Shown: piece by piece, positions 2,266 to 32,341 of the stretch
Layout: each line of letters opens with the position of its first letter
Position numbering within the stretch: position 1 is the first letter of the stretch
DNA from: Planctomycetota bacterium
Lineage (GTDB): Bacteria; Planctomycetota; UBA1135; UBA2386
Length of the DNA: 64,000 nucleotides
Assembly: GCA_965228735.1 (NCBI GenBank)
Contig: OZ245838.1
Span: 1,344,001 to 1,408,000, forward strand
Direction: 5' to 3'
Translations under genes and position numbers: made by a program
The notes under the pieces: model-generated
What the model saw: only the letters and a program-made list of their open reading frames with translations
Databases searched by the model: none
What the model was told of the DNA's origin: nothing

Positions 2266-3945
2266 ATGATTCGCTACTGCACACGTCTGGCGTTGGTCGG
2301 CCTCTTCGGATTCCCCATCGCAGCGCAGGATCTGCTGTGGCGCGTCGAAGGGGTCAGTGGCCTGATTGCGCGCGGCGGTGACTTCCACAGGCTCGGCGAT
2401 TTCGACGGGGACGGGTGGGACGATCTTCTGGAACGCGGTGCGGCATGGAACGGCCAGTCGGCGTTCATGACGATCTGGTTCGTGTCGGGTCGGGACGGCA
2501 GTATCCTGTCCGTCGGGACACCCCTGCCCCACCAGTATTGGACGTTCAGCAACATCGCACCGCTCGGCGACATGACCGGCGACGGCGTTCCTGACTACGG
2601 CGGGCACGCCTACGACGCGTTCATCCCGTGGGCCACGCAGACCCTCGCGGTCGTCAATGGCGCCTCCCATTCGATCCACTGGAGCGCGACAATCCCCAAC
2701 GCCTGGGGCACGGATTTCGGCAAGGTCTTGTGCGGCGACCTCGACACCGACAACGATGGTCTCAACGATGTCGTGACCTCGGCGTTCAGTCTGTCGCCGG
2801 GCGGAACGATTATCGTCTACGACAACTCCGGCGCGGAGCGCTACCGCATCATCGATCCGATCCCGAACGTGCAGGTCGGCCTCGACGTCGCGTCGCTGCA
2901 GGGTGACCTCGACGGCGACGGCTGCGACGACTTCGTCAGCACTGGCATCGAGCCGGGCAACCGCGGCGCGGTCGTCGTGTTCTCGGGCCTTACCGGCGCG
3001 GTGCTGCGCTACTCCGTCGGCGAGCAGCCGGGCGACAAACTCGTCAACGCCGGCGCCTGCGGCGACATCGATCGCGACGGCGCACTCGATTACTGCGGCG
3101 GCGGCTCGTTCGGCGCGGGAGTCGTGACCGCGTTCTCGGGCGCCACGGGTCAGATCATCCACTCGTGGCGCGATCCCAACAATAACGGCATGGGGGTCAA
3201 CGTCACCGGCGGCATGGACCTTGACCAGGATGGCGTGCCCGATCTGGTGACGGGACAGGAGTCCACTTCACCAGCGCCGAACGACCGTATCGTCAGCGCG
3301 CTGTCGGGGCGCGACGGCACGTTCCTGGCGCGGTGGTATCGATCCGCCAACGCGTTCACCTGCATGGCCGAGTCCGTGGCGATCCTCGGGCCGGGGCCGG
3401 GCCACCAATACCCATCGATCGTCTACGCCGAGCGCTGCTGGGGTGGGATCGGCAATCCCTGCCCCAGCAACGGCCTGTGCCCCGGCGTGGTCTGGTGCTA
3501 TCGCGGCAGCCCGGCTGGAGTGCGCGCCTACGGGTTGCCCGACGCCAGTTCCGGGCAACCGTTGGTGCGTAGCGGGATGCGCAGCCCGACTCCCGCCGCG
3601 ATCCCAACCGTGAGGTTCACGATGTCCGAAGCACCGCCCGGTGCCGTGGCGGTGCTCATGCTCGGCGCCTCGAACGCGGCCTACCAGGGCATCGCGTTGC
3701 CGCTGCCGCTCGACCCGTTCGGCTTCGGCGGCATCACGCTCTGGACTTCGGCCGACATCACGTTGCTCACGGTTGCCGGCACCAGTGGCGTAGATGCTGG
3801 ATACGCCGAACTCAACGTGTCCCTGCCGCCGGGCCGAATCATCGACTACTCGGGAACGCCGTTCTATGCGCAGTGGCTCTGGTTCGACCCGACCAACTTC
3901 GGCAACCATGGGTCGACGGCGGGCCAGCGCTTTCGGCTGCAGTAG
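2266..3945 (+). CDS. Secreted FG-GAP (integrin-alpha-like) repeat protein with shared C-terminal domain
   Basis: Signal peptide ending PIAA-Q; repeated GDFDGDGWDD / GDMTGDGVPD / DLDQDGVPD Ca-binding motifs; FYAQWLWFDP tail. Confidence 0.85.
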   Translation: MIRYCTRLALVGLFGFPIAAQDLLWRVEGVSGLIARGGDFHRLGDFDGDGWDDLLERGAAWNGQSAFMTIWFVSGRDGSILSVGTPLPHQYWTFSNIAPLGDMTGDGVPDYGGHAYDAFIPWATQTLAVVNGASHSIHWSATIPNAWGTDFGKVLCGDLDTDNDGLNDVVTSAFSLSPGGTIIVYDNSGAERYRIIDPIPNVQVGLDVASLQGDLDGDGCDDFVSTGIEPGNRGAVVVFSGLTGAVLRYSVGEQPGDKLVNAGACGDIDRDGALDYCGGGSFGAGVVTAFSGATGQIIHSWRDPNNNGMGVNVTGGMDLDQDGVPDLVTGQESTSPAPNDRIVSALSGRDGTFLARWYRSANAFTCMAESVAILGPGPGHQYPSIVYAERCWGGIGNPCPSNGLCPGVVWCYRGSPAGVRAYGLPDASSGQPLVRSGMRSPTPAAIPTVRFTMSEAPPGAVAVLMLGASNAAYQGIALPLPLDPFGFGGITLWTSADITLLTVAGTSGVDAGYAELNVSLPPGRIIDYSGTPFYAQWLWFDPTNFGNHGSTAGQRFRLQ

Positions 3946-4022
3946 CCGCAAGAGTCGCTTGCCCGGGCCTGATCTCCTGAACTCTCCGCCCGTGGGCTCA
4001 CCTATCCGCGGGCTCCGCTGAG

Positions 4023-4796
4023 CTAGACACGTCGCCTCGGGTGTCGCCGCCACCGCTGCAGCCGAAGATCGATCGGCCGAATGAACCGGCGGCGGAACTC
4101 GCGCCGCGACCGGATCGTGTTGCCAACCATCGTCGTGCCGGCCAGGGAGTTGGCAGCCTCCAGATACTGCTCCGCGATCGCCATCTCGCCGAACTCGCGC
4201 GCGCTCCGGAATCGACGAGCGAACTCGGGGTCCTTCGCGATCCAGTTGTAGATCGTGCGGGTGCTCGGCGTGCCCGGCAGCCGACAGTAGTCGCGCAGGT
4301 AGTTGCCTTCGCTGACCCAGTCGAGAACCTGTTCGGCCATGTCCTTCGGGACGGGCTTGAGGCGGCGCCGAGGGCGTCGGCCGCCCTCAGGCGGCATCAG
4401 GCCAGCACGGCGGAGATCGGCCAGCGTGGGCGATCGTCGCGGCTTCTCACGGCGAGCGCGCGCCGGGCGGGCCCTCGCCGCCGCGATCGCGTCCCTGGCT
4501 GCCGCGACCGCGGACGATCCCGGGTAGAGCAGGCGCCAGACCTCGCGCGGGCGACCACCGCGTGGTCCGCTCGGCATGACCGTGCGGGAGATCAGGCCCG
4601 TCGCCTGCAACTCGGCGAGGGCGGCGCGCAGGTCCGCACCTGCAACAACGCGGCCCGTCGCTGCATGGAGTTCGCGCATCGACCTCGACGCCTGGTGCAG
4701 CGCCAGCAGCACGCGGTGGCCGAGGAGCGATCGTTTCCCCATGCCGTGCGGGCGCGGCACGTCGACACCCATCGCCACGAGCCAGGACTGCACCAT
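4023..4796 (-). CDS. Winged-HTH plus terminase-small-subunit-like (Sf6 gp1-type HTH) protein; start uncertain (4796, 4772 or 4742)
   Basis: C-half EQVLDWVSEGNYLRDYCRLPGTPSTRTIYNWIAKDPEFARRFRSARE fits the TerS HTH pattern; N-half wHTH ending GGRPREVW. Confidence 0.65.
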   Translation of the reverse strand: MVQSWLVAMGVDVPRPHGMGKRSLLGHRVLLALHQASRSMRELHAATGRVVAGADLRAALAELQATGLISRTVMPSGPRGGRPREVWRLLYPGSSAVAAARDAIAAARARPARARREKPRRSPTLADLRRAGLMPPEGGRRPRRRLKPVPKDMAEQVLDWVSEGNYLRDYCRLPGTPSTRTIYNWIAKDPEFARRFRSAREFGEMAIAEQYLEAANSLAGTTMVGNTIRSRREFRRRFIRPIDLRLQRWRRHPRRRV

Positions 4797-4902
4797 CGCC
4801 GGATTGTAGTTGCGGATGTCGTGTAGTTTGTTCGATCCGCAGCGATCGAGCCAAAGCTGCGCACTTCGTGTGCGCGCGCGAGAGCGCCGACCACCGACCG
4901 CG

Positions 4903-7281: not shown

Positions 7282-7529
7282 GGCGCCTCCCCCGCCAGTG
7301 CCGTAAGCGCGGCCAGCAGTCGCTGGAGTTCCTCGACGGTCGTGCACCACCCCCGCCCGCCACCGCGGAAGCGGCGCAGGCGAACCCCGCTCACGCCGGC
7401 CGTGGTCCAGCGGTAGACGGTGGCGACCGAGACCAGGCGGCCGTCGCCGCGTTGCGGCAGGTGTTGCGGCGCGAGCGCCAGCGGGACGGCCTGCTCGCCA
7501 GCCCACCAGCAGTTCGTAATCTTGCTCAT
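7278..7529 (-). CDS. DUF1580-like small HTH (excisionase/AlpA-like) protein
   Basis: LPQRGDGRLVSVATVYRWTTAGVSGVRLRRFRGGGRGWCTTVEELQRLL; coupled to the primase. Confidence 0.75.
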   Translation of the reverse strand: MSKITNCWWAGEQAVPLALAPQHLPQRGDGRLVSVATVYRWTTAGVSGVRLRRFRGGGRGWCTTVEELQRLLAALTALAGEAP

Positions 7530-7681
7530 CGGATGCTGTCCTGCCTGCCGGGGCACATCCCCGTGCAGGTGGACTCATCCTTGGGCAGCGAGCGGCGACG
7601 AGCGGCGGCCGTTCGTGCGCCGCTCGTTGGCAGATGGACGTGGCGCAGCCGCATCAGGCAGAGTTCAATCGCACCCAGGAA

Positions 7682-7846
7682 ATGGCAGTCTCGAACTACG
7701 ATCGCCTTCCAAGAGTCGTAGCCCTCTTGGCCCTGTCCCTCCCCCTCGCCGCGCAGACCAGCGGAGGCGTCATCGGCTCAGGCTGCGTGCTCGCCCCATC
7801 CGCTCGCCCGGGACGCCGGGCGGTGTCACGAACGCCTCGACGTTGA
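7682..7846 (+). pseudogene. 5' fragment of a secreted protein (signal peptide + GSGC), truncated
   Basis: MAVSNYDRLPRVVALLALSLPLAA-Q-TSGGVIGSGC, then runs into an opposite-strand fragment. Confidence 0.45.
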
Positions 7847-9110
7847 ACACGACCGTGCCGGCCGGCAACGGCGTGCCGAGTACGAGCGCGCCGAGCGCGC
7901 CGACAGGTGCATCGTGCGTCGCGACCGCGAACTCGGGGTTGGGCGCGATCGGCGCGCTGTTCGGCTGCAGGAACGTCGGCGGGCCGCAGGGGCTCGTGGC
8001 CTGGCCGAAGCGCGCCATCGTGGCCGGCAGCGTGCGGTGCACGGCGATCCAACCTTCGCGATTGCCGGCGAACGTCGGATCGAACGCGTTGCCGGTGATC
8101 GGGAAGTCGGTCGACCTGGTCTGGCCCGCCACCCGCACGCCGCCCTGGCCATCGGGCTCGATGGTCGTGACGATCTGGGCCGTGCTGCCGCCGAACCACG
8201 TCGAGTACTGCACCGTGGTCGCGGTCGATCCGGGCTGCAACCGCAGCAGGAACGCCGCCGCGAGGTTCTGGGCGGCCAGCCGCTGCGGCTGGGGAGCACC
8301 GGCGGTGATCGGCCAGTTCGGCGAGAACGAGTGCCCCGCCAGCACGTAGGAGCCGCTCGACTCCCGGTAGGCCGAGAGCACGTAGTCATTGTCCGTGCCG
8401 TCCACGCCGGTCGCGTAGAGGATCTGGTCCTGCACCGTGTCGAGGTGCACGACCAGCCCGCCGTTGCCGCCCGCGCCGAACGGCAGGGCGTTCGCGGTGA
8501 ACGGGAAGTCCGTCGAAGCGGTGTTGCTCACGATCACGATCCGGTCGGCGCCGTCGCCGCGCAGCTCATGGCAGAGCTCGTCCTGCGAGCCGCCGAGAAC
8601 CGCGGAGTACGTCAGGCCGGCGCCGGCCAGATCGAAGCGGCTGACTGCCAGATCGCGTGCTCCGCGCGGGCCATGGACGCGCGCGTTGGGGTTGGGGTAG
8701 TCGGCCGATGCCGTGTGGCACGCGACGGTGATCGTGCCGGCGGCGTTGCTGATCACCTGCACGTTGCGCGGGCCGAGCGCGCCGCCGGACCAGAAGAAAT
8801 CGGGCCCCTCGTCGGCGGAGCCGCCGAGATTCTCCGCCCGCAGCGCGATCGCGAGGTTCGGCTCCATGCAGCGGAGCCGAGCAACGCCTGCCAGCGTTTG
8901 GTGGAGAGCTCGCAGCTCCTTGGCGAAGTGCGCGAGTTCACCGAGATGAAGGATCGGACCCGTCGCGTGCACCTCGGCGCCCGAGACTCGAACCCGCGCC
9001 TCCACGACGAGCCAGTTGCCGTCCCAGTGGTCCTGAGCCTCATCACACTGGCGGGAGTGCACCCACACCCCGAGGGGCCCAACTTCGATGTCGGCTGACC
9101 GCTCGTCCAT
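7770..9110 (-). pseudogene. Chimeric ORF: WapI-like immunity protein N-part fused to SBBP-type propeller blades and a truncated shared C-terminal domain
   Basis: DHWDGNWLVVEARV..GPILHLGELAHF..MEPNL then YSAVLGGSQDE, SNTASTDFP, YSTWFGGS, AGQTRSTDFP; no signal peptide. Confidence 0.6.
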
Positions 9111-9396
9111 GACCGACGAGCAGAGCGACGGACTCCTCCGTCGGCAACCGAAGTTGCTGGCCGCAGCACGCCGAGGTCACTCGTCGATACTCCACAACAC
9201 TCCGCGTCAACGGAATCCCGGACCCGATCGGGCCCGAGTAGGCCATTCAGGCCGTTGTTGGCACTCCCGGCCCTGTCGCCCAGCTATGCTCCCGCACCGA
9301 CCCGCTTCGGCTCTGCCGTTGCAGGCCGTGCCATTGAGACGTAGCTCGCTGTCGAGCAGCGCGCTTTGCGCGGAATCGATGCCTGGAGGTCGCGAC

Positions 9397-11979: not shown

Positions 11980-11995
11980 TGGCACTCCTGGTGCA
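11980..11995 (+). promoter_or_regulatory. Candidate sigma54 -24/-12 promoter
   Basis: TGGCAC-TCCTG-GTGCA (GG-N10-GC), 90 bp upstream of the Kelch gene. Confidence 0.4.
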
Positions 11996-12084: not shown

Positions 12085-13440
12085 ATGCATCCATCGCTCA
12101 TCAACGCCTGCGTCATTGTCGCAATCACCGCCCCGGTCGCCTCACAAGCAACGTGGACGCAGCTCTATCCCAGTTCCTCGCCAGGGCCGCGATCGGGCGC
12201 CATGATGGCGTGCCACGAGGCCTCGAACACGATGCTCATGCTCTTTGGCAGCGGGCAATCGGACGCCTGGCAGTTCGCCGGGAACGCTTGGCTCCAGCTG
12301 ACCGGTCCGCTGCCGCCGCAGCGCGGCAGCGCCAAACTGGTATACGACTCCGCTCGGGAACGACTCGTGCTGTTCGGGGGTCGCAGCCAAGGCAACGCAT
12401 TCGATGATACCTGGGTTTGGGATGGGACGAGCTGGAGCGGGCCGCTGCTGGCGGTTCATCCGGCCGCCCGCTGGGGCCACGCCATGGCGTTCGATCGCGA
12501 CCGTGAAGTCGTGGTTCTCTACGGCGGCTTCGTGTCCACCAGCAGCTACCGCGAGGATCTCTGGGAATGGGATGGCGTGGCCTGGCAGCTGATCGCGACA
12601 ACCAACGCTCCCGGCGGCCGCTTCGACAGCAAGATGGCGTTCGACCCGAACAGTCGGAACGTGCTGCTCCATGGCGGCAGCGTGGTTGTCCAAGGTAGCG
12701 AGATTCCGGTGAACGACACGTGGACCTGGGACGGTGCGGCCTGGCAGCAGCATCAGCCAGTAACGCCTCCCACGATTCGTTTCGGTGGCGACATGGTCTG
12801 CGACCTGGACCGACGTCGGGTCTTGTTGTTCGGTGGTTCGACAGGCAACCACTTCGCGTGGGAGTGGGACGGATCTGAGTGGAGCATCGTCTTGCAGGCA
12901 TCGCCGAGCGAGCGCAGCGGGCACGCGATGGCCTACGACAGCGCGAACCGCCGGACGGTGCTCCATGGGGGCAATTGGCTGGGCAGTTCGAGCTGGACTC
13001 TCAGCGACACTTGGGTGTTCGAATCGGCGCATCCGGCGACCGTCACCCCATACGGTTCCGGTTGCGCGGGCGTTGCCGGAGCACCGGACCTGGCGGCCGA
13101 TGCCTACGCGCTACCCTGGCTCGGCGACACAGCTCGCAACCGCGTCACGAACCTGGACCCGGCCGGCAGCGCCGTCTTCTTCGCGACCGGGCTCGATCCG
13201 TCAGCCCCGGTTTCGCTGGCGCCGTTCGGGATGCCGGGTTGCGACCAACTCGTGACCCCTGCGGCCGTCGAGCTGGCCGCCGCCAGCAACGGCGAAGCGA
13301 CATGGTCCCTGATGATCCCAACGTCGACGTCCTTCGCTGGCGTACAGTTGTTCCAGCAGGTGGCGGCGCTCGATCCCGCTGCCAACGCCGCCGGGCTGAC
13401 GGTCAGCAACGGCGTCGAGATGACGATCGGGATTCGCTGA
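12085..13440 (+). CDS. Secreted Kelch-repeat propeller with shared C-terminal domain
   Basis: Signal peptide ending PVAS-Q; repeats YD..R..VLFGG..DTW.WDG..W; YGSGC...PGC...QQVAALDP..SN. Confidence 0.9.
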   Translation: MHPSLINACVIVAITAPVASQATWTQLYPSSSPGPRSGAMMACHEASNTMLMLFGSGQSDAWQFAGNAWLQLTGPLPPQRGSAKLVYDSARERLVLFGGRSQGNAFDDTWVWDGTSWSGPLLAVHPAARWGHAMAFDRDREVVVLYGGFVSTSSYREDLWEWDGVAWQLIATTNAPGGRFDSKMAFDPNSRNVLLHGGSVVVQGSEIPVNDTWTWDGAAWQQHQPVTPPTIRFGGDMVCDLDRRRVLLFGGSTGNHFAWEWDGSEWSIVLQASPSERSGHAMAYDSANRRTVLHGGNWLGSSSWTLSDTWVFESAHPATVTPYGSGCAGVAGAPDLAADAYALPWLGDTARNRVTNLDPAGSAVFFATGLDPSAPVSLAPFGMPGCDQLVTPAAVELAAASNGEATWSLMIPTSTSFAGVQLFQQVAALDPAANAAGLTVSNGVEMTIGIR

Positions 13441-16059: not shown

Positions 16060-16072
16060 GCCGAGAGCCACT

Positions 16073-19298: not shown

Positions 19299-20327
19299 TC
19301 ACCGCACCATCGACCGCACCCCCGCGCTGAACGCGACGCCGGCGGGCGCGAGCGGGTCGAGCACGAGCGCCTGGGCGTAGATGTCGAGCAGCGTGATGCC
19401 GGGCGGGATCGCGATCGGCATCGTGGCGAAGCCGACTCCCGGTTGCTGCTGACCCGGCAGCGCAACGACCAAGGTCGTGAGCGGCGAGACGAGCAAGGTG
19501 CCGCCGAGGATCGGGGTGTTGTCCGGCGCGAAACCGACGGCGAGCGCGGCCAACGAACCACCCAGGGCGCGCGAGAGCCGCAGGCTCATCGTGAATCCGG
19601 CCTCGGGGCAACACAGACCATCCAGATCGGGCGTGAGGCCGCCGCTGCCGGCGACGCCGTTGCCGTAGGAGCTGTGACCGCCCGGGCAGGTCGAAGGCCC
19701 CGGCGTCACCGTGAGCCGGATGTAGTCGACGATCGTGTCATCGCCGACGAACACGTCGAGGAAGCCGCGCTGTTCGAGTTCGGGCAACACATTGCAGGTT
19801 CCGCCATCAGCGAGCGGCAGCCGTTCGAGGTCGAGCGTCAACGTCGCCGTCTGGTTGAAGGTCCAGCCCCCGAGCAACCCGTTCGGTTCCGCGAAGAACA
19901 CGCAACCGCTGCTGGTGAGCGGACCGAACGTCCGGCGGTAGACGACGGCATCGGCCAGCTCCACGGTCGTCGCATCCGCGAACATCAGCAGGATCCCGTC
20001 CGTCTGCGGGTTCCCGGTCGCCGAGGCCCGCATGGGAATCTCGAGGCGGGCCGCCGCGATACTCGACGGCAGTCCCGTGAAGGTGTGCGCCACGGAGGTG
20101 TTGTTGGCGCCCCCACAGAACCCGGCGCCGACGTCGAACCCCTGCAGGCCAACCCCGACCGAGCCGCACTGCAGCGTGGCGACGGCGGCCGGGCTCGGCG
20201 ATGCAGGGTCCGGCGGACACGCGAAGTTGTCCGCGTTGCCGGCCATGAAGATCTGGCCGGGAACCGGGGATGCGACGGCGAGCACAAACAGCAGGCCGAC
20301 CGCACGACGCGTGACGTCGAGAAGCAT
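19299..20327 (-). CDS. Secreted protein, beta-sandwich-like passenger plus shared C-terminal domain
   Basis: Signal peptide ending PVPG-Q; SYGNGVAGSGGLTPDL...IYAQALVLDP..FSAG. Confidence 0.8.
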   Translation of the reverse strand: MLLDVTRRAVGLLFVLAVASPVPGQIFMAGNADNFACPPDPASPSPAAVATLQCGSVGVGLQGFDVGAGFCGGANNTSVAHTFTGLPSSIAAARLEIPMRASATGNPQTDGILLMFADATTVELADAVVYRRTFGPLTSSGCVFFAEPNGLLGGWTFNQTATLTLDLERLPLADGGTCNVLPELEQRGFLDVFVGDDTIVDYIRLTVTPGPSTCPGGHSSYGNGVAGSGGLTPDLDGLCCPEAGFTMSLRLSRALGGSLAALAVGFAPDNTPILGGTLLVSPLTTLVVALPGQQQPGVGFATMPIAIPPGITLLDIYAQALVLDPLAPAGVAFSAGVRSMVR

Positions 20328-20487: not shown

Positions 20488-21864
20488 CTACCGCACGTTC
20501 ATCTCGGCCGCGTTCGACGTCGCCCCCGGCAACGGCCGCGTGACCGCCGGGTCGATCGACAGCGCCTGCAGGAAGATCACGAGGCCGCTGAGCGACGGGT
20601 TCGCCGGGATCGGCAGCGACCAGCTGGCCGTGCCGGACGGGTGCGTCACGAGCACGGACACGGCCGTCGACGTGTAGCCGCGGCAGCCCGTGAGACCGAT
20701 GCCGGTCAGATCGATCGGCAAGGGCGCGCCACCCGACACGGTGTCACTGAAGCCAGCCGTGACGAAGGCGGCGCCGCCGGTGCTCGGCAGGTCCACGATC
20801 GTGACATCCGTCGTCGTGCCAACCGCCGGCATCGCGCCGGGCACGATCCGCGGCGGCAGCAGGTTGCTGCCGTCACAGCCCGTGCCGAACGTGCGATACG
20901 TCGCCGCGTTGCCGCCGAGCTCCCAGGTGTCGCCGATCGCGCCCGCGCCGTCGAAGCCACCGAAGACGACGGTCTGACCCCGAACGAGGTCGTACGCCAT
21001 CGCCATCGCCGAGTTGCCCTGCGGGCGAGCGGCGGTCACCAGCTGCCGCCACCCGCGGCCGTCGTACTCCCAGGTCTCGTCGAGATCGGCCACGCCATCC
21101 GAACCACCGAACAGCACGCAACGCGCGCGCTGCACGTCGAACACCATGAACGAGTCGGTCCGCGGCGACGGGGCGCCATCGGTCGTGACCTGCCTCCAGC
21201 TGCCGCCGTCGTACTCCCAGGTCTCCCCGAGCAACGCCGGCTCGCGCCCGCCGAACAGCACGGTCGTGGCGCGCGCGGCGTCGTAGGCCATCGAATGCCC
21301 CTCGCGCGGCCCCGGCGCCGTGGCGGGCGACACCTGGGTCCAGTCGATGCCGTCGTACTCCCAGGTGTCCCCCAAGAAGTTGGCCTGGTCGCTGCCGCCG
21401 AACAGCACGATCACGTTGCGCGCGCTGTCGAACGTCATCGCACTGAGCAGCCGCGCGCTCGGCGCGTTCGCCGGCTGGCGATTGCTCCAGTCCGTGCCGT
21501 CCCACTCCCAGGTCTCCCCGAGCAGGTTGAAGTTGAAGTCCCAGCCACCGAACATCACGGTCCGTGCCCGCACGCTGTCATAGGCCATGACGTGACTGTC
21601 ACGCTCGGTCGGCACGGTCGCCGGCGAGCGCAAGAACCAGTTGGTGCCGTCGTATTCCCAGGTGTCCTGGAACACGATCGACCCGGTCGGCGCGTTCCAG
21701 CCGCCGAACACGACGGTCCGGGCGCGAGCCACGTCGAACGCCGAGCGCGGGAACGTGGCGCCCGCGGGGCTCGCAGCGGGGTTGGGCTGCACCCAGTTCT
21801 GGGCGTCGAGCGCGTTGATGATCAGGGAAGCAGAGCAGGCGAGATAGGTGGCGGCGTGCCGCAT
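20488..21864 (-). CDS. Secreted Kelch-repeat propeller with shared C-terminal domain
   Basis: Six repeats YD..RA.TVLFGG..ETWEYDG..W; FGTGC...GC...LQALSIDP..SNA. Confidence 0.92.
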   Translation of the reverse strand: MRHAATYLACSASLIINALDAQNWVQPNPAASPAGATFPRSAFDVARARTVVFGGWNAPTGSIVFQDTWEYDGTNWFLRSPATVPTERDSHVMAYDSVRARTVMFGGWDFNFNLLGETWEWDGTDWSNRQPANAPSARLLSAMTFDSARNVIVLFGGSDQANFLGDTWEYDGIDWTQVSPATAPGPREGHSMAYDAARATTVLFGGREPALLGETWEYDGGSWRQVTTDGAPSPRTDSFMVFDVQRARCVLFGGSDGVADLDETWEYDGRGWRQLVTAARPQGNSAMAMAYDLVRGQTVVFGGFDGAGAIGDTWELGGNAATYRTFGTGCDGSNLLPPRIVPGAMPAVGTTTDVTIVDLPSTGGAAFVTAGFSDTVSGGAPLPIDLTGIGLTGCRGYTSTAVSVLVTHPSGTASWSLPIPANPSLSGLVIFLQALSIDPAVTRPLPGATSNAAEMNVR

Positions 21865-23754: not shown

Positions 23755-23875
23755 GTCGTTCGCGCCGGGGCCTCGCGCTCTGGCCTTCGCGCCGTGGCCT
23801 TCACGCCGTGGCCGCGGCGCACGGAACCGTAGCGCCCCCGTGTCCACCGACGCTCGACCCGCCTACGATGGCGCG

Positions 23876-23995
23876 ATGTCGAGGATGCCCGCCGCCCTCT
23901 TCGTCTGGTGCGCCGCGACGTCGCTCGTGGCTGCGGCCCCGGGTCCGCACTACGCCGCGATCGGCAACGCGCTCGTGGTGCGCATCGGCGACTGA
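23876..23995 (+). pseudogene. 39-aa micro-ORF: signal peptide joined to the last strand of the shared C-terminal domain
   Basis: MSRMPAALFVWCAATSLVAAAPGPHYAAIGNALVVRIGD*; TACGAT box 6 nt before the ATG. Confidence 0.4.
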
Positions 23996-24165
23996 GACGG
24001 ACTCCCGCCGTTTTCGCAGCGCCGACACCGCGATCGCTGCGGCTGGTTCGGTCCGGCAAGTGCGCGGGCAGTCGTCTCGCCCGGTCCACGCGTCGTGTTA
24101 TCGTCGGCGGCCGGCGCCGCTACCGCTGCGTTCGCCCATCCCCTGTCCGCGCTCGACCGACGACC

Positions 24166-25584
24166 ATGTCGCACACCACCATCAACCTCGCTGTCATCAC
24201 CATCCTCACGGCCGGCGCCTGCGCCCAGATCGTGCCGTGGACCCAGCAGTCGCCGGCCAGTTCCCCGTCCGTTCGTGAACGCACCTTCACGGCGACGGAC
24301 GGCAACGTCTTCTACATGTATGGCGGCCAAATCGGCGCCTCGACGACGGGCCGCGACGACCTCTGGTCGTGGGACGGCTCGGCGTGGACGCAGCTCTCGA
24401 CCGGCACCGGACCCGGCACCCGCTGCGGCGGCGTCATGGCCTACGATCAGGCGACCGGCAAGCTCGTCCTGTTCTCGGGCAAGGGCACCGGCGGCAACTG
24501 GAACAACTACGACAACCAGACGTGGGAGTGGGATGCCGGCAACGGCTGGGTCCAGATGAGCCCCGGCACGTCGCCGGACCCGCGCTGGCTCATGGGTGAC
24601 TCGGCCGTCTACACCCCGGCCTACGGCGTGCTGTTCCACGGCGGCAAGGCCTGGGACTCGACCGGGACCGCCTACGACTCGAACGAGACCTGGGCCTGGC
24701 TCGGCGGCACCTGGGTCAACCTGCCCACGGCCAACGGGCCCACGGTCTTCAACCACTCGATGGTCTACCGGCCGGCTCCGCACGACGACGTGATCCTGTT
24801 CGGCGGCAAGCTGAACGGCGCTGACAGCGCCGCCACCTACCGCCTCGATCTCAGCACGCTGACCTGGTCGCAGGTGACGACCGCGGTGTCGTACCCCGCG
24901 ACGGGCACGTTCGCCCACCTGTCGTACTACAACCCGATCACCGACAAGGTCGTCGTGCACGGCGGCACCGGCGGCAGCTCGATCAGCGTGACCTACGAGT
25001 TCGACGGCGTCGATTGGACGGACGTCTCGAGCGCCGGCGCACCGTCGTGCCGCAACGGCGGCGCAGAGTGGGTGAACGCGCTCAGTGTGGCCGTCGCGGG
25101 TCCGATGAGCGAGAACAACGGTGCACGCGACCGGGTCTGGCACCATGGCCCGAGCACCTGGGGCACGTTCACGATCATGGGCACGGACTGCCCGTCGAGC
25201 ACGGCGCAGACCGCCACGATCTCGTCGCCGGACATGCCGTCGATCGACGCGACGCTCGACCTCGACTTCGACAACCTGACGGCCGGCACGTTGACGTTCG
25301 GTGTGCTGGGCTTCTCGGACACGATGCTCGGCGGCGCCGCCCTGCCGATCCCACTCGCGCAATTCCTGCCGGGCACCGATCCGGCCTGCAGCGTGCAGGT
25401 GAGCAACGACGTCAGCCTGTTCCTCGCGACCGCGGGCACGAGCACGACCCTCGCGCTGTCGTTCCCGAACAACCCGGTCCTCGTCGGCACCCGATTCTTC
25501 GCGCAGGGCGTGCAGATCGAGCTCGGCGCCCCGATCACCGCGGCGAACACGAAGTACGCCGAGATCGTCCTCGGGGAGCTGTAG
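24166..25584 (+). CDS. Secreted Kelch-repeat propeller with shared C-terminal domain
   Basis: Signal peptide ending GACA-Q; YGG/FHGG/FGG..W blades; MGTDC...GFSDT..LPIPL..C...FFAQG. Confidence 0.9.
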   Translation: MSHTTINLAVITILTAGACAQIVPWTQQSPASSPSVRERTFTATDGNVFYMYGGQIGASTTGRDDLWSWDGSAWTQLSTGTGPGTRCGGVMAYDQATGKLVLFSGKGTGGNWNNYDNQTWEWDAGNGWVQMSPGTSPDPRWLMGDSAVYTPAYGVLFHGGKAWDSTGTAYDSNETWAWLGGTWVNLPTANGPTVFNHSMVYRPAPHDDVILFGGKLNGADSAATYRLDLSTLTWSQVTTAVSYPATGTFAHLSYYNPITDKVVVHGGTGGSSISVTYEFDGVDWTDVSSAGAPSCRNGGAEWVNALSVAVAGPMSENNGARDRVWHHGPSTWGTFTIMGTDCPSSTAQTATISSPDMPSIDATLDLDFDNLTAGTLTFGVLGFSDTMLGGAALPIPLAQFLPGTDPACSVQVSNDVSLFLATAGTSTTLALSFPNNPVLVGTRFFAQGVQIELGAPITAANTKYAEIVLGEL

Positions 25585-25728
25585 CCCGCTTCGCCAACCG
25601 GCGGGGTTTTCGGGCGGTGTCTTCGCGCATCCCGAGTTCGCCCGCCGCGTCGCGGCGCAGCGCTGACCCGGACCGATCGGCGTTCCGCGGGTAGACTACC
25701 GGGGCTGCCGCCCCACGACTTCTCGCCA

Positions 25729-27258
25729 ATGCACTCTCGCCACCTCCCTCGGTTCGCGCTCGTCGCGGGCGTCGCCGCGTTCCTGGCCGTTCCGGTCGTT
25801 CGGGCGCAGGTTCAACCGATCCCGGTCCTCACGCGCTCCGTCACGCTCGACTCGGGCTACGTCCAAAACCCCACGAGCACGACCGCGATCGTGTTCCGCC
25901 AGGACCTCGTGGTCCCGGACGCCCTCTGGCTGCGGCTGCGGTTCGGCACCACGAATCTGCCCGCGGGCGGTCGGTTGCGGCTCACCTCGCTGCACGACGG
26001 CGCGGTCCAGTGGTTCGACGCCGGCAGTCTGCGTGACTACGGCAACGGCTCGGCCTACTTCAACGGCGCGGGGGTCACGATCGAACTGTTCGCCGCCGGG
26101 GGCAGCACCGGCAATCGCGTCGCGGTGACCGCGGTCGAGCTCGAGTCGCGCGACACCCCACGCGTCGATTCGATCTGCGGCAACACCGACGACCGGGTGC
26201 TCGCGACCGACCCGCGCATCGGGCGCGCCGTCACCGGCGCCTCGGCCTGCACGTGGTGGCTCATCAGCGAATGCGTGATCGTCACGGCCGGCCACTGCGC
26301 GGACAACGCGACGACGCCGACGATCATCGGGTTCAACCTGCCGCTGTCGACGACGGGCGGGACGATGGTCCATCCGCCGCCGGACGACCAGTACCCGGCG
26401 ATCGTGCCGACACTGCAGTTCCAGGATGCGGGCATCGGCCGCGACTGGGCCGTCATGCGCATGGGGCGCAACAGCAACCATGGCGAGTACCCCGGTGAGC
26501 GCCAGGGGGCGTGGTTCGAGCTCGGCCCGGTGCCGAATGGCATCGCTGGCGTCGACATCCGGATCACGGGCAACGGGCGGGTCTCGGCGCCGGTATCGCT
26601 GACGTGGAACTCCGTGACGAAGACCCACGTCGGACCGCGGGTCACCACGGGCACCGCCGATGCGCTGCGGTACGCGACCGACACGACCGGCGGCAACTCC
26701 GGTTCACCCGTCATCCACGAACAGACCGGGCGTGCCATCGGCGTGCACACGCACGGCGGGTGCAACTCGTCGGGCGGCGGCAACTACGGCACGCGAATCG
26801 ACAAACCGGCGTTCGCCGCGGCAGTCAACAGCGCACTCGCGCTCGCGTGCGGCACGTTCGCGTCGTTCGGCCAGGGCTGCGGCGGCGCGCTCGGGCCGCC
26901 GGACCTGTCGATGAGCGGCCTGCCCGACATCGGCACGACGGCCAACGTCGACCTCGGCAACCTGCCGGCGCAGCAGTTCGGGCTCGTCGCCTACGGCTTC
27001 TCCGACACGGTCTACCAGGGCACGACGTTGCCGTTCGATCTCGGCGCCGCCGGGCTCCCGGGCTGCACGCTCTACGCCGCGCCGGACCTCAGCGTCTTCG
27101 TGCCGACCGCGAACGGCAGCACCAGCTACCCGCTCGTGATCCCCAACGCGCCCGCGTTCGTCGGCGTCGACCTGTTCGTCCAGTATTTCGTCACCGATCC
27201 GACGTCCGCCGGCGGCGCCGCCGTTTCGAACGCGGCGCGGATCCACATCGGCGCGTGA
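25729..27258 (+). CDS. Secreted trypsin-like (S1) serine protease with shared C-terminal domain
   Basis: TAGHC (His), RDWAV (Asp), GGNSGSP (Ser); FGQGC...PGC...VQYFVTDP..SNA. Confidence 0.92.
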   Translation: MHSRHLPRFALVAGVAAFLAVPVVRAQVQPIPVLTRSVTLDSGYVQNPTSTTAIVFRQDLVVPDALWLRLRFGTTNLPAGGRLRLTSLHDGAVQWFDAGSLRDYGNGSAYFNGAGVTIELFAAGGSTGNRVAVTAVELESRDTPRVDSICGNTDDRVLATDPRIGRAVTGASACTWWLISECVIVTAGHCADNATTPTIIGFNLPLSTTGGTMVHPPPDDQYPAIVPTLQFQDAGIGRDWAVMRMGRNSNHGEYPGERQGAWFELGPVPNGIAGVDIRITGNGRVSAPVSLTWNSVTKTHVGPRVTTGTADALRYATDTTGGNSGSPVIHEQTGRAIGVHTHGGCNSSGGGNYGTRIDKPAFAAAVNSALALACGTFASFGQGCGGALGPPDLSMSGLPDIGTTANVDLGNLPAQQFGLVAYGFSDTVYQGTTLPFDLGAAGLPGCTLYAAPDLSVFVPTANGSTSYPLVIPNAPAFVGVDLFVQYFVTDPTSAGGAAVSNAARIHIGA

Positions 27259-27351
27259 GCGCGCACTTCGCGCCGGCATTCGCGGTCCGCCTGGACGACC
27301 CCAGGCGGCCAGGTACAGTGACGGATCCCACCACTCCCTGGAGGATCCGCC

Positions 27352-28308
27352 ATGCTTCGCACCGTCGCTCTGTCTGCTCTTCTCGCCGCCACCGTTCCGG
27401 CCCAGTCCCCACCGTGCCTGGCCGAGAACGACCAGACCACCAGCGCGAGCAACGCGATCACCGCGTTCGGGTTCGGCGGTCAGAACTCCTTCGCGTGGCA
27501 GATCACGCCGACGAGCACGCTCGTCGTGCTGGCTGCGCGCGTGTTCACGGAGAACACGACGCTGACCGGTGACCGGTTCATGGCGGTCGAGATCTGGGAC
27601 GACCAGAACGCGGCGCCGGGAACGCGGCTCGCGGGCGGCGGATGGCGCATCGACAACAACCGCCCGGAGTCGTGGCAAGGCGCCAACCTCGATCAGCCCA
27701 TCGTGCTGACGCAGGGCGTGCCGGTGTGGCTGGTCTGGGTCGAGCCCGGGTTCAGTCAACCGATGACCGAGCCCGGCGGCGCCACGCAGTTGCCGCACCA
27801 GACGCGTTCGGGCACCGGCGCGTGGACACCCCGCTCGGCGTCCGCGCCGAAGTTCCGCCTGTTCTGCAACTACCTCGACGACGTCAACTCGGCGCCGGCC
27901 GGCTCCGGCTGTCCCCTGTCGACCAACCGGATTCCGACGGCCTACACCAACGAAGCGCCGCAGATCGGCAACGGCGACTTCCTCTTCGAATCGAGCGGCA
28001 CCCCGGCCGGCGGCGCGGTCTTCGCGGTCATCGGCGTCAACCCGAACTTCCCGGCCACGCCCGTCCTCGGCCTGCCCGCCGGTTGCGACCAGCTGACCGA
28101 CGCGGTCGCGTCGCTGTTGCTGTTCGCGGGCAACGGTGACACGCGTGGTCCCGACTTCGCGGGCCACGCGGAGCTCGATTTCCCGATCCCGAACAACCCG
28201 GGGCTCGTGGGCGCATTCTTCGCGGTGCAGTTCGCGCCGATCGATCCCGGCGCGACCGCGCCCCTGCCGTTCGGCACGAGCAACGCGCATCGCATCACGC
28301 TCTTCTGA
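27352..28308 (+). CDS. Secreted protein with shared C-terminal domain
   Basis: GGAGG RBS; signal peptide ending VPA-Q; AGSGC...AGC...VQFAPIDP..SNA. Confidence 0.85.
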   Translation: MLRTVALSALLAATVPAQSPPCLAENDQTTSASNAITAFGFGGQNSFAWQITPTSTLVVLAARVFTENTTLTGDRFMAVEIWDDQNAAPGTRLAGGGWRIDNNRPESWQGANLDQPIVLTQGVPVWLVWVEPGFSQPMTEPGGATQLPHQTRSGTGAWTPRSASAPKFRLFCNYLDDVNSAPAGSGCPLSTNRIPTAYTNEAPQIGNGDFLFESSGTPAGGAVFAVIGVNPNFPATPVLGLPAGCDQLTDAVASLLLFAGNGDTRGPDFAGHAELDFPIPNNPGLVGAFFAVQFAPIDPGATAPLPFGTSNAHRITLF

Positions 28309-28793
28309 CGTCAACGTCCGGGCCGCGACGCCGTCGGATCGAAGGGCTCGAAGCGGGAGTTCCGGTACACGAACGCGCCGTGCTCGAGGGTGCCGACCCA
28401 CAGTTCCGGCAGCCGAACTCCCACATCCGAGGTCTGCTGCGGGCGAGCCGTGGACGACGAGCACCCTTAGGCCGACGGGAACAAGGGTTGCCACTGCGGC
28501 ACGCCCGCTTCCGCGCCCGCCGCCTCGAGCCGCATACCGACGGTTCTGCTTAAGGCCCGAACGTAGAGAGAGTGGAGCGGCGTCGAACGTGTCGGCGGCG
28601 CGCCGCCCTCACCATGCTGATCGCCGCCGCGCTGCTCGTCTGGTTCGCCCTGGCCTTCGTGTTCGGCTCGGCGCTCGGCCGTCTGCTCAAGCACGCGTCG
28701 CCGCCCGCGCCCGGGCCCTTGGGCTGCAAGCTGTCGGGCCCGGGTTCGTGCTGCACGCAGCGCCGCGTCCGCGACGCGGCGTGAACGTTACGA

Positions 28794-28937
28794 CTACTTG
28801 ACGACCTGCACCTCGAGGCGCTGACTGCCCTCGAAGGCGTTGCCGTCGAACGTCCAGTCCTCGAAGTAGAACGTCACCGGCCCGAGGAACTCCGGCAACG
28901 CGACGTCAGATGGATCGGAGAGTCGGAGAATGGTCAT
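28794..28937 (-). pseudogene. Orphan fragment resembling the end of the shared C-terminal domain
   Basis: FLGPVTFYFEDWTFDGNAFEGSQRLEVQVVK*; coding-like codon use, no upstream domain. Confidence 0.35.
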
Positions 28938-29199
28938 GATTCGGTTCTGGGGCTGAGAATGGATGGCGTCGAGGGACCGCCATTCCGGGCCTCGACGGCG
29001 CGCCCGGGACCGCACCGGTTGTCCTCGGACTCCTCCGGGCGGCCACGCGGACCGGGGTTCGCCGCTGGCCTATCTTTCTGCGGATGAACCTGACATTGCG
29101 GTGACAACGAGGTCTGTACGGCAACCCACGCCTCTCCGATTCAGCGCCCGGCCATCCTCTCCCGGGCGCCGGTTCGCGTTACCCGTTCGCTCCCCGCGC

Positions 29200-30927
29200 A
29201 TGAAGTCCATCCCGACCGGCACTCCCGCACTCCTGACGTTCTTCCTCGCGCTCGGCCTCGCGCCGGCTCAGGACGCGGCCGGCCCGCCCCGCATGCGGCT
29301 GTACGACGTCCGCGACATCGTTCGGCTCGAGCCGAACTACCTGCCCGCGGCGGCCGTCGACGCGTCGCTCGTGCCGGCGGGACTGCACGAGAGCGACGAT
29401 CCACACGTCGCGCTCGAGCTCGGCGACCTCGTCAACTTCCTGTACATGAGCACGGACCCCATGTATTGGGACCGGGAAGGCGTCGAACTCCGCGGTGACG
29501 ACAGCGGCTACCTCGCGATCTGGTGCGACGAAGGGATGCACGCGCAAACGCGCAGCGTGCTCAGCAAGATTCGCCGGGTGCTGTTCGAACCCGTGCTCGT
29601 CGAGCTGCACGAACTCCCCGGCTCCGTGTTGCAGGATCGCAGCGCCGTCCTTTCCGCGAACGCGGTGACCGACCTCCTCGCCGAGGCGGAAGAGCACGGG
29701 GTGCTCGCCGGCCGCGCCAATCCACGGCGGCCGCTGCTGCTCGAGTCGAAGCGGATCCAGAACCGGGTCGCGAGCTTCTCGATGGTCGTCGCGCAGGACG
29801 CCGCGACGCCCGACCTCGGGCTCGCCGCGGAGAACTACGGTTCGACCTGGAGCGTGCGCGTCCGCCGTACGCTCGACGAACGTATCCTCGTCACCCTGTC
29901 CGGCAGCGACCGCACCCTGACCCGTGGTCCGGTCTGCGAACTGCCGACCGCCGAACCCGGCAAGCTCGCGGCCGTCGAGCTGCCCGTGACGGCGATCGCG
30001 ACGGCACACGCGAGCGCCTACCTGCGACCTGGCGAAGGGTTGCTCATTGGCAGCGACGCCCCGGGCGGCGGCGCGCTCTGCCTGCGCATTCGGCGCACGC
30101 CGGCGGCCGACCTCACCGTCGGCGCAACGACGATCTACCCGGTGAGCAACCTCACCCGCGGCGCCGCGCGCCCGGCACCGATCCGCATCCCGTACTCCGA
30201 TGGCCATCTGCTCCCCGAGAGCGACGAAGAGCCGATGCCCGCGGTGTTCGACGATGGCCGCCTGCAGGAGTGGCTCACCGCCCAGGTCCAGCCCGACACC
30301 TGGGACGGTTCGCCCAACACGATGCACAGCCTCAACGGCCACCTGCTCGTGGCTGCCGACGACGACACCCAGAAGGGCGTCCGGGAAGCGCTGCAGCAGC
30401 TGCAGCTCATCGATGCACGCCAGTACACGCTCGAGGTCGCGTTCGGCGACGTGACGACCGAGCAGATCGCCGACCTCACGGACCTCGACCCGACGCAACT
30501 CGCCACCGCGTTGCCCCACCGCTGCGTGACGACGGTGTCCGCGAGCCGCGACACCAGCGTCAGCAGCACGTGGCACACGCCGTACGTCAAGGACTACCGG
30601 GCCGTGATCGCCACCGGCAGCTCCGCGGCATCGCCGCTCCTCGGCTCGATCGCGCGCGGCTTCCTCATGCAGGCGAGCGTCGGCCCGATGGACCAGGGGG
30701 CGACCCTGCTCGATCTGCGCATGACGCTGCTCACGCACGACGACAAGCCGGGCCAGTTGCAGGTCGCGCACCCTGGCTTCGCCCGACTCGCGAAGGTCGA
30801 CGTGCGCGAGAACACGCTGCGCGGGGCCACGTTGGTCACGCTCGGCGAATGGACGATCCTGCAGCTCGCGCCCCTCGCCGACGGCAGTGGCCATGTCGCG
30901 ATCGTGGCGCGACTGCGGTCCGCGTAG
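29200..30927 (+). CDS. Secreted protein with two tandem secretin-N/NolW-like plus secretin-like units
   Basis: RLYDVRDI / IYPVSNL, TDPMYWD / VQPDTWD, TPYVKDY..VIA...ASP; signal peptide ending APA-Q. Confidence 0.65.
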   Translation: MKSIPTGTPALLTFFLALGLAPAQDAAGPPRMRLYDVRDIVRLEPNYLPAAAVDASLVPAGLHESDDPHVALELGDLVNFLYMSTDPMYWDREGVELRGDDSGYLAIWCDEGMHAQTRSVLSKIRRVLFEPVLVELHELPGSVLQDRSAVLSANAVTDLLAEAEEHGVLAGRANPRRPLLLESKRIQNRVASFSMVVAQDAATPDLGLAAENYGSTWSVRVRRTLDERILVTLSGSDRTLTRGPVCELPTAEPGKLAAVELPVTAIATAHASAYLRPGEGLLIGSDAPGGGALCLRIRRTPAADLTVGATTIYPVSNLTRGAARPAPIRIPYSDGHLLPESDEEPMPAVFDDGRLQEWLTAQVQPDTWDGSPNTMHSLNGHLLVAADDDTQKGVREALQQLQLIDARQYTLEVAFGDVTTEQIADLTDLDPTQLATALPHRCVTTVSASRDTSVSSTWHTPYVKDYRAVIATGSSAASPLLGSIARGFLMQASVGPMDQGATLLDLRMTLLTHDDKPGQLQVAHPGFARLAKVDVRENTLRGATLVTLGEWTILQLAPLADGSGHVAIVARLRSA

Positions 30928-31186
30928 CGACACTGTCAGGGACAGCAGCCGCAGCGCCTCTGCTGCCGCGCCGTGGGACCGACGCAACCAGCCTGACCCC
31001 GCGCACATGGCGCGTGGCAGCGTGAGCGGCGTCACGCGATGCCCCGGCGCAGATCCTGTGACACTCTGCGGACCGAAACCACCTCACGGTGCGGACGGTC
31101 GCACTTGCGGGCAGCCGCCGGCGATGGCCGCTACACTGCGCGTCTCGCCCTGCCCGTTCTTGCCTCCCAACCACCGATACCAACGC

Positions 31187-32341
31187 ATGCACACGCTCCC
31201 CTCGCGGCTCGCTCTCGCGACGCTGCTCGGCGCCACGGCGCTGCCCGCCCAGAACTTCATGGGCTTCTCCTACAACACGATCGCCAGCACCAACTCGCGC
31301 GGCCAGCTCGACGTCGCGGCCGGCGAGATCATGACGCGCATCGACGGCGACGAGTACGCCGGCTGGGGCACCGACACTCCCGGCATGCGCACGATCGCGA
31401 GCATCTTCCTGCTCGTGCAGGACCAGGACGCCGTCGCGACGCCGAACGAGCCGTTCGGCATCTACCTCTACCCCGAGGATCCGACCAACCCCGGCTTCCC
31501 GGACCTCGCGCAGCGCACGCCATTCGTCGTCGGCCTCGCCGGCCCGGGGGCGCCGCCGAGCGGCACGATCAACGGCGCGGTCATCGTCGCGACGCCGGCC
31601 GCGCCGGTCGCGGTTCCCATCCAGGGCGGCGGTGACGTGTTCGTCGCGCTCGATCTGCCGGCGGCGCCGAACTGGCCGAACGACGGACTGTCGACGCTCG
31701 TCATCCTCGGCTACCAGCCGGCCGGCGTGACGTTCTTCGACGCACCCGGGCAGGCCCAACAGACCGGCACGCCGCCGGGGCCCGAGAACTCGCACATGCT
31801 GACGAACGACGCCGGCGCGCTGACCTACGACGAACGCAGCCAGTTCGTCTTCGACATCGCGCACAGCACCGCGGCCGGCGTCGCGCTCGGCATCACGAAT
31901 CAGGCGTCGTTCCCGGCGAGCGCCAATCCGCCGCCGACCGGCTTCGGCCCGGCACCCGGCACCGGGTCGTTCTTCTCGGGCACGGCGCCGGACGTCTCGC
32001 AGTTCGACCCGACGCGCGCGGACGACGTGACGTTCGACTACTTCCGCGCGGGCTCCGGCCCCAACCCGCTCGTGTTCTTCCTCGTCGACATCGGCGGTTT
32101 CGCGCCCGAGGTCCCACTGAGTAGCTTCGTGCCCGGCAGCACCGGCGTGCTCTGCGTCAGCAACAACGCGATCACGCTCGGCATCGGCGCGAGCATCGGC
32201 GACGAAGCCTGGTTCACGCAGACGTTCCCGGCCGGGGCCCGCGCGTCGGCCGTCGGCCTGCCGATGGTACAGCAGGCCGTCGAGTTCGACCCGAACGCGG
32301 TCGTCGGGCACGCCAGCCCGTGCGCGCGCCAGGTCTTCTAG
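31187..32341 (+). CDS. Secreted protein with a divergent shared C-terminal domain
   Basis: Signal peptide ending LPA-Q; tail VPLSSFVPGSTGVLC...GLPMVQQAVEFDP..HASP. Confidence 0.8.
   Translation: MHTLPSRLALATLLGATALPAQNFMGFSYNTIASTNSRGQLDVAAGEIMTRIDGDEYAGWGTDTPGMRTIASIFLLVQDQDAVATPNEPFGIYLYPEDPTNPGFPDLAQRTPFVVGLAGPGAPPSGTINGAVIVATPAAPVAVPIQGGGDVFVALDLPAAPNWPNDGLSTLVILGYQPAGVTFFDAPGQAQQTGTPPGPENSHMLTNDAGALTYDERSQFVFDIAHSTAAGVALGITNQASFPASANPPPTGFGPAPGTGSFFSGTAPDVSQFDPTRADDVTFDYFRAGSGPNPLVFFLVDIGGFAPEVPLSSFVPGSTGVLCVSNNAITLGIGASIGDEAWFTQTFPAGARASAVGLPMVQQAVEFDPNAVVGHASPCARQVF

Follow-up and report, generated by a model that had tools for sequence, protein, structure and literature searches.

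An unnamed Ig-like terminal domain on exported proteins of Planctomycetota and its possible part in surface docking

The window analysed here is a 64,000-nucleotide stretch of the genome of a Planctomycetota bacterium (the source genome, G000). It contains eight genes that end alike in one domain of ~135 aa, and a probable ninth copy that is broken. The carriers were read as ORFs, and none of the eight genes has an internal stop. The genes and their tails are as follows.

2266..3945, + strand: FG-GAP propeller protein with a signal peptide; tail ~3526-3942, no Cys pair; HMM E 2e-17.
7770..8024, - strand: probable ninth copy, broken; a half tail (first half) that ends ORF 7770-9110, identified by eye.
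12085..13440, + strand: Kelch propeller protein with a signal peptide; tail ~13033-13437; HMM E 1e-38.
19299..20327, - strand: unnamed passenger with a signal peptide; tail ~19302-19688; HMM E 6e-20.
20488..21864, - strand: Kelch propeller protein with a signal peptide; tail ~20491-20898; HMM E 2e-31.
24166..25584, + strand: Kelch propeller protein with a signal peptide; tail ~25162-25581; HMM E 2e-23.
25729..27258, + strand: S1 (trypsin-like) protease with a signal peptide; tail 26851-27255 (used for structure prediction); HMM E 2e-34.
27352..28308, + strand: short unnamed passenger with a signal peptide; tail ~27898-28305; HMM E 1e-20.
31187..32341, + strand: signal-peptide protein with a divergent tail, the weakest member; tail ~31940-32338; extended tail model E 1e-5.

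The initial annotation had proposed a shared C-terminal domain on these eight genes. The domain is real: all of the ORFs are present, and their tails align by BLASTP and HMM. The listed coordinates were correct; strands had been left unstated, and two of the genes, 19299-20327 and 20488-21864, lie on the minus strand. The passengers differ, as had been claimed. Pfam identifies FG-GAP, Kelch (three genes) and S1 protease passengers, and the other three have no Pfam match. BLASTP between the five core tails gave E values down to 2e-19, and the FG-GAP, 19299 and 31187 tails were weaker. A domain HMM was iterated over the 61,526 six-frame ORFs of the source genome. It matched seven of the eight window tails at E 1e-38 to 2e-17 and no reversed ORFs. 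It missed 31187-32341, which was matched with a tail-only extended model (E 1e-5; no matches to reversed tails). The copy at 7770..8024 was also absent from the matches of the iterated HMM; by eye, it stops short of the conserved Gln/Asp-Pro/Ser-Asn strands. An Rfam search retrieved one tRNA and nothing else. A related-loci search retrieved two loci with uninformative labels.

The domain is present on 349 of the 4,868 called genes of the source genome (~7%, about one in fourteen). The family contains 23,187 clusters at 50% identity and was found in 70 of 301 sampled Planctomycetota genomes. Small genomes have ~2 to 12 detectable copies each. Copies are 21 to 42% identical to each other. Each protein has a single copy (275/275), and the domain ends within 10 aa of the stop in 252 of 275. 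It had been described as always last. This is correct in the window and incorrect for the family: among 232 proteins of the source genome scored whole, the domain was C-terminal in 209, N-terminal in 9, alone in 14 and internal in none. N-terminal copies were also seen in further genomes, and 11 copies have 27 to 36 more residues downstream of the domain.

Signal peptides were called with our own heuristic, which has a high background: 249 of 266 carriers (94%) were positive versus 2,276 of 4,602 other genes (49%). A signal peptide followed by Gln was found in 90% of carriers versus 24% of other genes. Gln at +1 is not specific to carriers, because 12 of 22 sulfatases have it too. Glutaminyl cyclase (PF05096) was found in one of five genomes searched and not in G000. 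Membrane helices occur in 1.5% of carriers versus 17% of other genes. Lipoprotein signals are present in 3% of carriers and Tat signals in none. BLAST placed 243 passengers in 84 components. They include Kelch, FG-GAP, PKD, RCC1, lectin, S1 and S8 types, which suggest a surface location, and a choice-of-anchor B passenger that scores above the family cut-off. In eight carriers at least two c-haem motifs are present as well. None of the 22 sulfatase-like proteins found by motif in the source genome carries the domain; one sulfatase-like passenger, missed by the motif, does.

The AlphaFold2 model of the tail at 26851-27255 is an Ig-like sandwich (pLDDT 96). Its fold matches are generic, of Ig/Fn3 type. 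The top structural matches, including the macroglobulin domain of alpha-2-macroglobulin and complement, are 6 to 18% identical and score barely above many unrelated Ig domains, so that function is not inferable from them. A PDB sequence search gave a weak match to complement C3 (E 0.01, 47 columns). ML lipid-binding domains (GM2 activator, NPC2) were Foldseek's top rows (E of at least 0.003, TM 0.3 to 0.43, rmsd mostly >9); with these values, and absent from the VIA lists, they were dropped. The self-dimer prediction, run without controls, scored 0.05 against a mark of 0.42 and carries no weight here.

Conservation is highest in the last two strands, which contain an invariant Gln, a conserved Asp and a conserved Ser-Asn. 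The strands are hydrophobic on both faces, and the tails contain 3.0% Lys/Arg and 5.8% Asp/Glu. A Cys pair had been reported in most copies. It is present in five of the eight window tails as read from their sequences, and 218 of 323 genome tails have at least two Cys. It is not universal, since each Cys of the pair occurs in only 51% of a broad alignment.

A Pfam/NCBIfam scan of 64 tails gave best E values of 0.039 (Pfam) and 0.023 (NCBIfam), for single members only. No PDB sequence family names the domain, its Atlas neighbours are unnamed, and we found no description of it in the literature. The earlier statement that it is not a named family therefore stands for Pfam, NCBIfam and PDB sequence families. 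The tails align, match no known carbohydrate-binding or Ig family, and showed no internal or cytoplasmic placement. The proposal of a lineage-specific export or anchoring domain survives in part: this is an unnamed, lineage-restricted, Ig-like terminal module at the usual anchoring or sorting position, and it is not always C-terminal.

Three known systems resemble it. PEP-CTERM is a short motif followed by a membrane helix and a basic tail. Like the domain, the PEP-CTERM/exosortase system (TIGR02595, PF09721) puts a tag at one end of exported proteins from large paralogous sets. In contrast, the tails here are globular, without a helix and poor in Lys/Arg, and have no PEP-CTERM match. A co-inherited exosortase would be expected; in four domain-positive genomes it was present in G000 and G040 and not found in G047 and G229. 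The T9SS type A CTD of Bacteroidota (TIGR04183/PF18962) is likewise an Ig-like sandwich of seven strands that follows a Sec signal, and has similar cargo. Its signal lies in the last two strands (PMC4804311). The type A model has 72 positions, whereas the domain here has ~135 aa with a disulfide-capable insertion, and none of the 64 tails matched TIGR04183/PF18962 at E<=1. No solved T9SS CTD was among the top fold matches listed. The type A CTD is strictly C-terminal, unlike this domain. PorV is part of the T9SS machinery; it was not found in G000 (93% complete), with a positive control in Bacteroides. SprA gave no match in five genomes, but no control genome responded, which makes this search uninformative; the genome search with TIGR04183, in which no control responded either, is equally so. 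The sole C25 peptidase of the genome lacks the tail.

Dockerin type I has duplicated calcium-binding motifs. In other Planctomycetota, dockerin type I (PF00404) is likewise a lone module at one end of varied passengers with signal peptides, of the same families and in the same position. It is a 57-position Pfam family, whereas the domain here is a predicted beta-sandwich of ~135 aa. PF00404 matched none of the 64 tails and nothing in G000, and the tail model is all-beta. Dockerin-tailed exported proteins of Planctomycetota have been linked to a hypothetical 'planctosome' (PMC6461901).

The two modules appear to replace each other. In 100 of 120 window-protease homologues the tail is this domain; in 12 it is dockerin-like. 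G015, of the same order as the source genome and 91% complete, is the only domain-free genome of that order in the relatives sample; it has no copies, also with a broader model. It has 39 dockerin matches versus 0 to 3 in each of 27 domain-positive genomes tested (0 in G000). We examined 26 dockerin-tailed ORFs of G015. Eight have a G000 homologue, and seven of the eight best matches carry the domain. Homologous passengers thus seem, from their sequences, to exchange the domain for dockerin; within the order, the swap is based on this one genome. It is no strict either/or, because 17 of 21 domain-negative genomes have two or fewer dockerin matches. Cohesin (PF00963) had no match in G000, G026, G015 or G168 and six in G176; G015 therefore has no cohesin match to pair with its own dockerins, and this profile would overlook a receptor of a new kind. 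A choice-of-anchor B search retrieved near relatives only, 118 of 120 with this tail and two truncated, and no swap to a T9SS tail was seen.

Secretin-like and pseudopilin genes of the window had been suggested as machinery. The first suggestion is not supported. Gene 29200-30927 matches no Pfam or NCBIfam family, secretin families included, although its sequence is similar to the N-terminal portions of two secretins of G000. It was rejected as general machinery: a single query found it in 6 of the 25 domain-positive genomes and in 1 of the 21 negative ones. The giant pilin-like gene 56802-62009, of the pseudopilin operon, is present in 24 of 25 positive genomes and also in 3 of 21 negative ones (G015 and 2 of 20 others). 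The operon is a clade marker and a possible but non-specific exporter. The twin-secretin/ExbB-ExbD locus was rejected as specific machinery: it is in 25/25 positive genomes but also in 18/21 negative ones. In G000 it contains a stand-alone domain gene; in 20 of 20 other genomes the locus lacks that gene. The CBM9/DUF5916 protein G000:5086000-5088201 lies between two domain genes and is a crude barrel candidate. It lies close to the core domain gene in four small relatives (relatives' neighbourhoods were read at 5 of 13 loci). It was rejected as an obligate partner; full-length copies occur in 17 of the 28 positive genomes and in none of the 21 negative ones, and it was not found in 11 positive genomes, several of them domain-rich. 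All four candidates fail as specific co-inherited machinery, and none of those examined emerged as a receptor. Recurrent neighbours include FGE/sulfatase-type and sigma-factor-like families (labels partly our own reading). No transporter, chaperone/usher or dominant conserved stand-alone subunit stood out among neighbours or copies.

We consider it an even chance that the domain is an uncleaved surface-docking module, working like dockerin and not as a cleaved type IX tag. It shares the dockerin-type trait of sitting alone at one end of exported proteins of many kinds and being exchangeable on a given passenger. N-terminal and stand-alone copies are more readily explained by a binding module than by a tag that is cleaved from the C-terminus. 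The peak of conservation in the last two strands and the 90% of copies that are C-terminal also fit an export tag and count against docking.

The domain could instead be an outer-membrane export signal similar to the type IX CTD, exported by an undescribed translocon or a secretin and perhaps cleaved; we think this unlikely. The Ig-like fold, the ~90% of copies flush with the stop, the conserved residues placed like the T9SS signal (PMC4804311), the Sec-type rather than lipoprotein or Tat signals and the choice-of-anchor B passenger are consistent with it, and folded haem-bearing passengers require a two-step route. It is harder to square with the N-terminal and stand-alone copies here and the N-terminal ones elsewhere, the residues beyond the domain in 11 copies, the missing PorV, the tail-free C25 peptidase, the patchy exosortase and the exchange with dockerin, a binding module. 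An ordinary accessory Ig-like module, ligand-binding or stabilising, expanded in the lineage and without a sorting role, is improbable. Its target would be a polysaccharide outside the cell or some component of the periplasm. Binding modules often come in tandem or lie inside proteins, whereas this one is single and never internal; the alignment has no conserved aromatic platform, and the passengers are too diverse for one common substrate. Ig-like folds build S-layers and pili, but a self-assembling tile of an S-layer-like lattice or fibre, with stand-alone copies as blank tiles and passengers decorating the outside, is about as improbable: the very many genes, the stand-alone copies and the two hydrophobic faces suit it, but 21 to 42% identity and free loss of the Cys pair are hard to reconcile with a single lattice, no dominant subunit or chaperone/usher neighbour emerged, and small genomes have few copies.

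As a docking module, the domain would bind one common outer-envelope component and in this way present proteases, oxidases and adhesin-like propellers at the cell surface. Carriers would be exported by Sec and cleaved by signal peptidase I, usually before Gln; the signal peptides are seen, and the cleavage is presumed. They would then fold in the periplasm, where copies that have both conserved Cys probably form a disulfide; the c-haem motifs of eight carriers, which are matured there, are in keeping with this. Passage of the outer membrane would most plausibly use one of the genome's secretin systems, which occur in domain-free relatives too. Docking is predicted to be non-covalent and to use either the C/F/G sheet, which is uncharged and hydrophobic, or the insertion loop rich in Pro and Leu; the invariant Gln would take part, as would the conserved Asp and Ser-Asn. 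The partner could be a protein resembling cohesin, or a lipid or glycan of the outer leaflet. More tentatively, the domain may tag cargo for a surface-display system of deep-branching Planctomycetota that has yet to be described. As much as 7% of the proteome would then pass through a secretin channel, for which the twin-secretin/ExbB-ExbD locus and the giant-pilin operon are candidates, and be docked on an envelope receptor of its own. Such a system would do the work of type IX secretion with different parts, and dockerin could stand in for its tag.

The domain marks exported proteins across one large branch of Planctomycetota and likely docks them on the surface. It has more than 23,000 sequence clusters and occupies about one gene in fourteen, yet it is nameless in the libraries searched. 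A profile of it would likely reveal the surface proteome of this large, mostly uncultured branch. As a pull-down bait or in reporter fusions, it is a handle on how folded proteins are placed beyond the outer membrane in bacteria with no recognisable type IX or PEP-CTERM system behind such placement. The exchange with dockerin bears on the role of non-cellulosomal dockerins in planctomycetes. If the domain functions at either terminus and is uncleaved, it would be usable as a display tag.

All eight window ORFs that the initial annotation described as sharing a C-terminal domain were intact. They lie at 2266-3945 (FG-GAP), 12085-13440, 20488-21864, and 24166-25584 (Kelch), 25729-27258 (S1 protease), 19299-20327, 27352-28308, and 31187-32341, with 19299-20327 and 20488-21864 on the minus strand. 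Read from sequence, each protein starts with a hydrophobic, signal-like segment and then Ala/Gly-Gln. Pfam identified FG-GAP, Kelch, and trypsin passengers (the remainder of each protein); three passengers had no match. The last 140 residues of the eight proteins matched nothing in Pfam or NCBIfam. The tail domain is predicted to fold as an Ig-like sandwich (AlphaFold2).

The eight tails seeded an HMM, which was iterated over 61,526 six-frame ORFs of the source genome (G000; 7.19 Mb). It converged at 275 proteins with a single domain in each, within 10 residues of the stop in 252. Reversed ORFs gave 0 matches. Seven window tails scored E values of 1e-38 to 2e-17. A second model searched the last 190 residues of 4,868 G000 genes, called with a simple purpose-made finder. 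At E<0.01 it retrieved 339 tails, 316 of them at <1e-4, with 0 reversed tails and 4 matches in upstream slices, and recovered the divergent 31187-32341 tail at E 1e-5. The union of both models places the domain on 349 of the 4,868 genes (7%).

The domain had been described as always last. A census of 232 whole G000 proteins contained 209 C-terminal copies, 9 N-terminal copies just after the signal, 14 stand-alone copies, and none internal. N-terminal copies recur in other genomes. Kelch or galactose-oxidase-like proteins account for several of the N-terminal carriers. A heuristic found a signal peptide in 249 of 266 carriers versus 49% of other G000 genes, and a signal peptide plus Gln in 90% versus 24%. 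Membrane helices occur in 1.5% of carriers versus 17% of other genes, and no Tat signals were found among carriers. Across G000, exported proteins very commonly have Gln at +1, following the signal peptide. This resembles the Q-rule of Bacteroidota. Glutaminyl cyclase PF05096 was not found in G000.

Passengers were varied: 243 fell into 84 BLAST components. They include Kelch, FG-GAP, PKD, RCC1, lectin, S1 and S8 proteases, dihaem peroxidase-like, and Vps10 proteins, and also choice-of-anchor B, which elsewhere is paired with different sorting signals. None of the 22 motif-defined sulfatases carries the domain; one sulfatase-like passenger outside that set does.

Other features of the window are as follows.

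19-792, plus strand, Mutator/IS256-type transposase, directly 5' of the next gene
808-2262, plus strand, galactose-oxidase-like gene without a signal peptide
4903-7578, minus strand, Prim-Pol/PriCT-2/AAA_25 primase-helicase of a type typical of integrated mobile elements, adjoining the broken tail at 7770
7770-9110, minus strand, composite frame: WapI-like immunity domain, partial propeller-like region, half tail domain
9397-11742, plus strand, Ser/Thr kinase containing TPR repeats, closely followed by a tail-bearing Kelch gene
51358-51432, minus strand, the one tRNA gene

The gene at 808-2262 may have been cut by the transposase insertion, because a related gene (G000:537832-539928) opens with a signal and then an N-terminal tail-domain copy. 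The frame at 7770-9110 looks like rearranged debris.

The names attached to close relatives put G000 in Planctomycetota. Profile A1 (64 sequences) matched 23,187 clusters at 50% identity (E<=0.001). It hit 20 of the 21 relatives sampled; at class level 147 of 151 genomes had matches, and at phylum level 70 of 301. Family by family, presence in the phylum was near all-or-none for those listed. Broader models raised per-genome counts from at least 16 to at least 57 (G130) and from at least 2 to at least 12 (G137). GC content suggests that the carrier side of the phylum may be the high-GC 'Saltatorellus'/OM190 clade, for which 10.64898/2026.10.26.761892 gives about 70%.

The tail domain exchanges with dockerin on the same passengers. 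Among 120 homologues of the window protease, including the query, 100 have the tail domain, 12 a dockerin-like tail (recognised by motif in 11, PF00404 recorded for 3), and 6 another domain; 2 are truncated. A third, unrelated beta-rich tail of ~100 residues was seen in six homologues (P0185-P0187, P0193, P0197, and P0207). G015, a relative of the same order (91% complete), had no tail-domain copy by either profile and 39 dockerin matches. Dockerin matches numbered 0-3 in each of 27 tested carrier genomes; of 21 non-carriers, 4 had 12-92 and 17 had 0-2. From 20 G015 stretches picked among the dockerin matches listed, 26 dockerin-tailed ORFs were read. Eight have a G000 homologue, and the best match bears the tail domain in 7 (one covering only 50 residues), against a background of 7% of all G000 genes and more among exported ones. 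PEP-CTERM matches in carrier genomes were few and weak (0-4). PMC6461901 puts forward surface complexes of cohesin and dockerin in other planctomycetes, a proposal made without experiments.

PorV was absent from G000 in a search whose positive control was detected; in the SprA and TIGR04183 searches no positive control was. G000 encodes seven secretins, a GspD/E/F cluster, and the following candidates.

Window 55119-64000, continuing to G000:1414788, minus strand, PilM-plus-pseudopilin operon with an FHA protein, PilM-like and TPR proteins, four N-methyl pilins, and a 1,735-aa pilin-like protein
G000:6769699-6784599 (L197), ExbB/ExbD/TPR locus in which two secretins flank TPR proteins, ExbB, and two ExbD
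G000:5086000-5088201 (L142:8001-10199), CBM9 plus DUF5916 protein between two tail-domain genes, possibly an outer-membrane barrel

Four candidates failed as specific partners, and the secretin and pilin genes were not carrier-specific. The tallies are descriptive because kin are not independent. The local secretin-like gene (29200-30927), put forward initially as possible machinery, occurs in 6 of 25 carriers. It has no family match, resembles the N-terminal parts of two G000 secretins, and is patchy among relatives. It lies on the plus strand with a signal peptide and, by eye, two tandem degenerate secretin-like units. The pseudopilin operon was proposed as possible machinery too; its gene for the 1,735-aa protein is in 24 of 25 carriers but also in 3 of 21 non-carriers. 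That protein has no Pfam match and is apparently encoded once per genome through the carrier clade and G015. The twin secretins are in 25 of 25 carriers yet 18 of 21 non-carriers. Their gene order is kept in most of the Planctomycetota tested, genes for actin-like and ParA-like proteins adjoin the locus in G000 and G026, no tail-domain gene lies inside it in 20 of 20 genomes other than G000, and a literature search found no co-mention of its components. The CBM9/DUF5916 protein is full length in 17 of 28 carriers, so it is not obligate, and in none of the non-carriers tested. An exporter common to dockerin- and domain-tagged cargo would yield the pilin-operon and secretin pattern; a plain clade marker would do so too.

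The tail domain would resemble dockerins and T9SS tails in its way of working, yet by membership tests belongs to neither. No description of it was found in the full-text literature searched, which covers a minority of subscription journals, or in the accessible parts of 10.1101/817700, 10.64898/2026.10.26.761892, PMC4804311, and PMC6461901. A type IX-like export tag would fit the C-terminal bias and the conserved last two strands, the part to which PMC4804311 assigns the T9SS signal. It appears unlikely given the N-terminal and stand-alone copies, the copies with short extensions, and the exchange with dockerin, a binding module. A generic ligand-binding module and a lattice-building unit are both improbable. 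Copy position, short extensions, and the dockerin exchange lead us to prefer an uncleaved docking module to the export tag; the chances that the domain is one are about even. Its carriers would fold in the periplasm, use a secretin to cross the outer membrane, and dock non-covalently onto a common envelope component.
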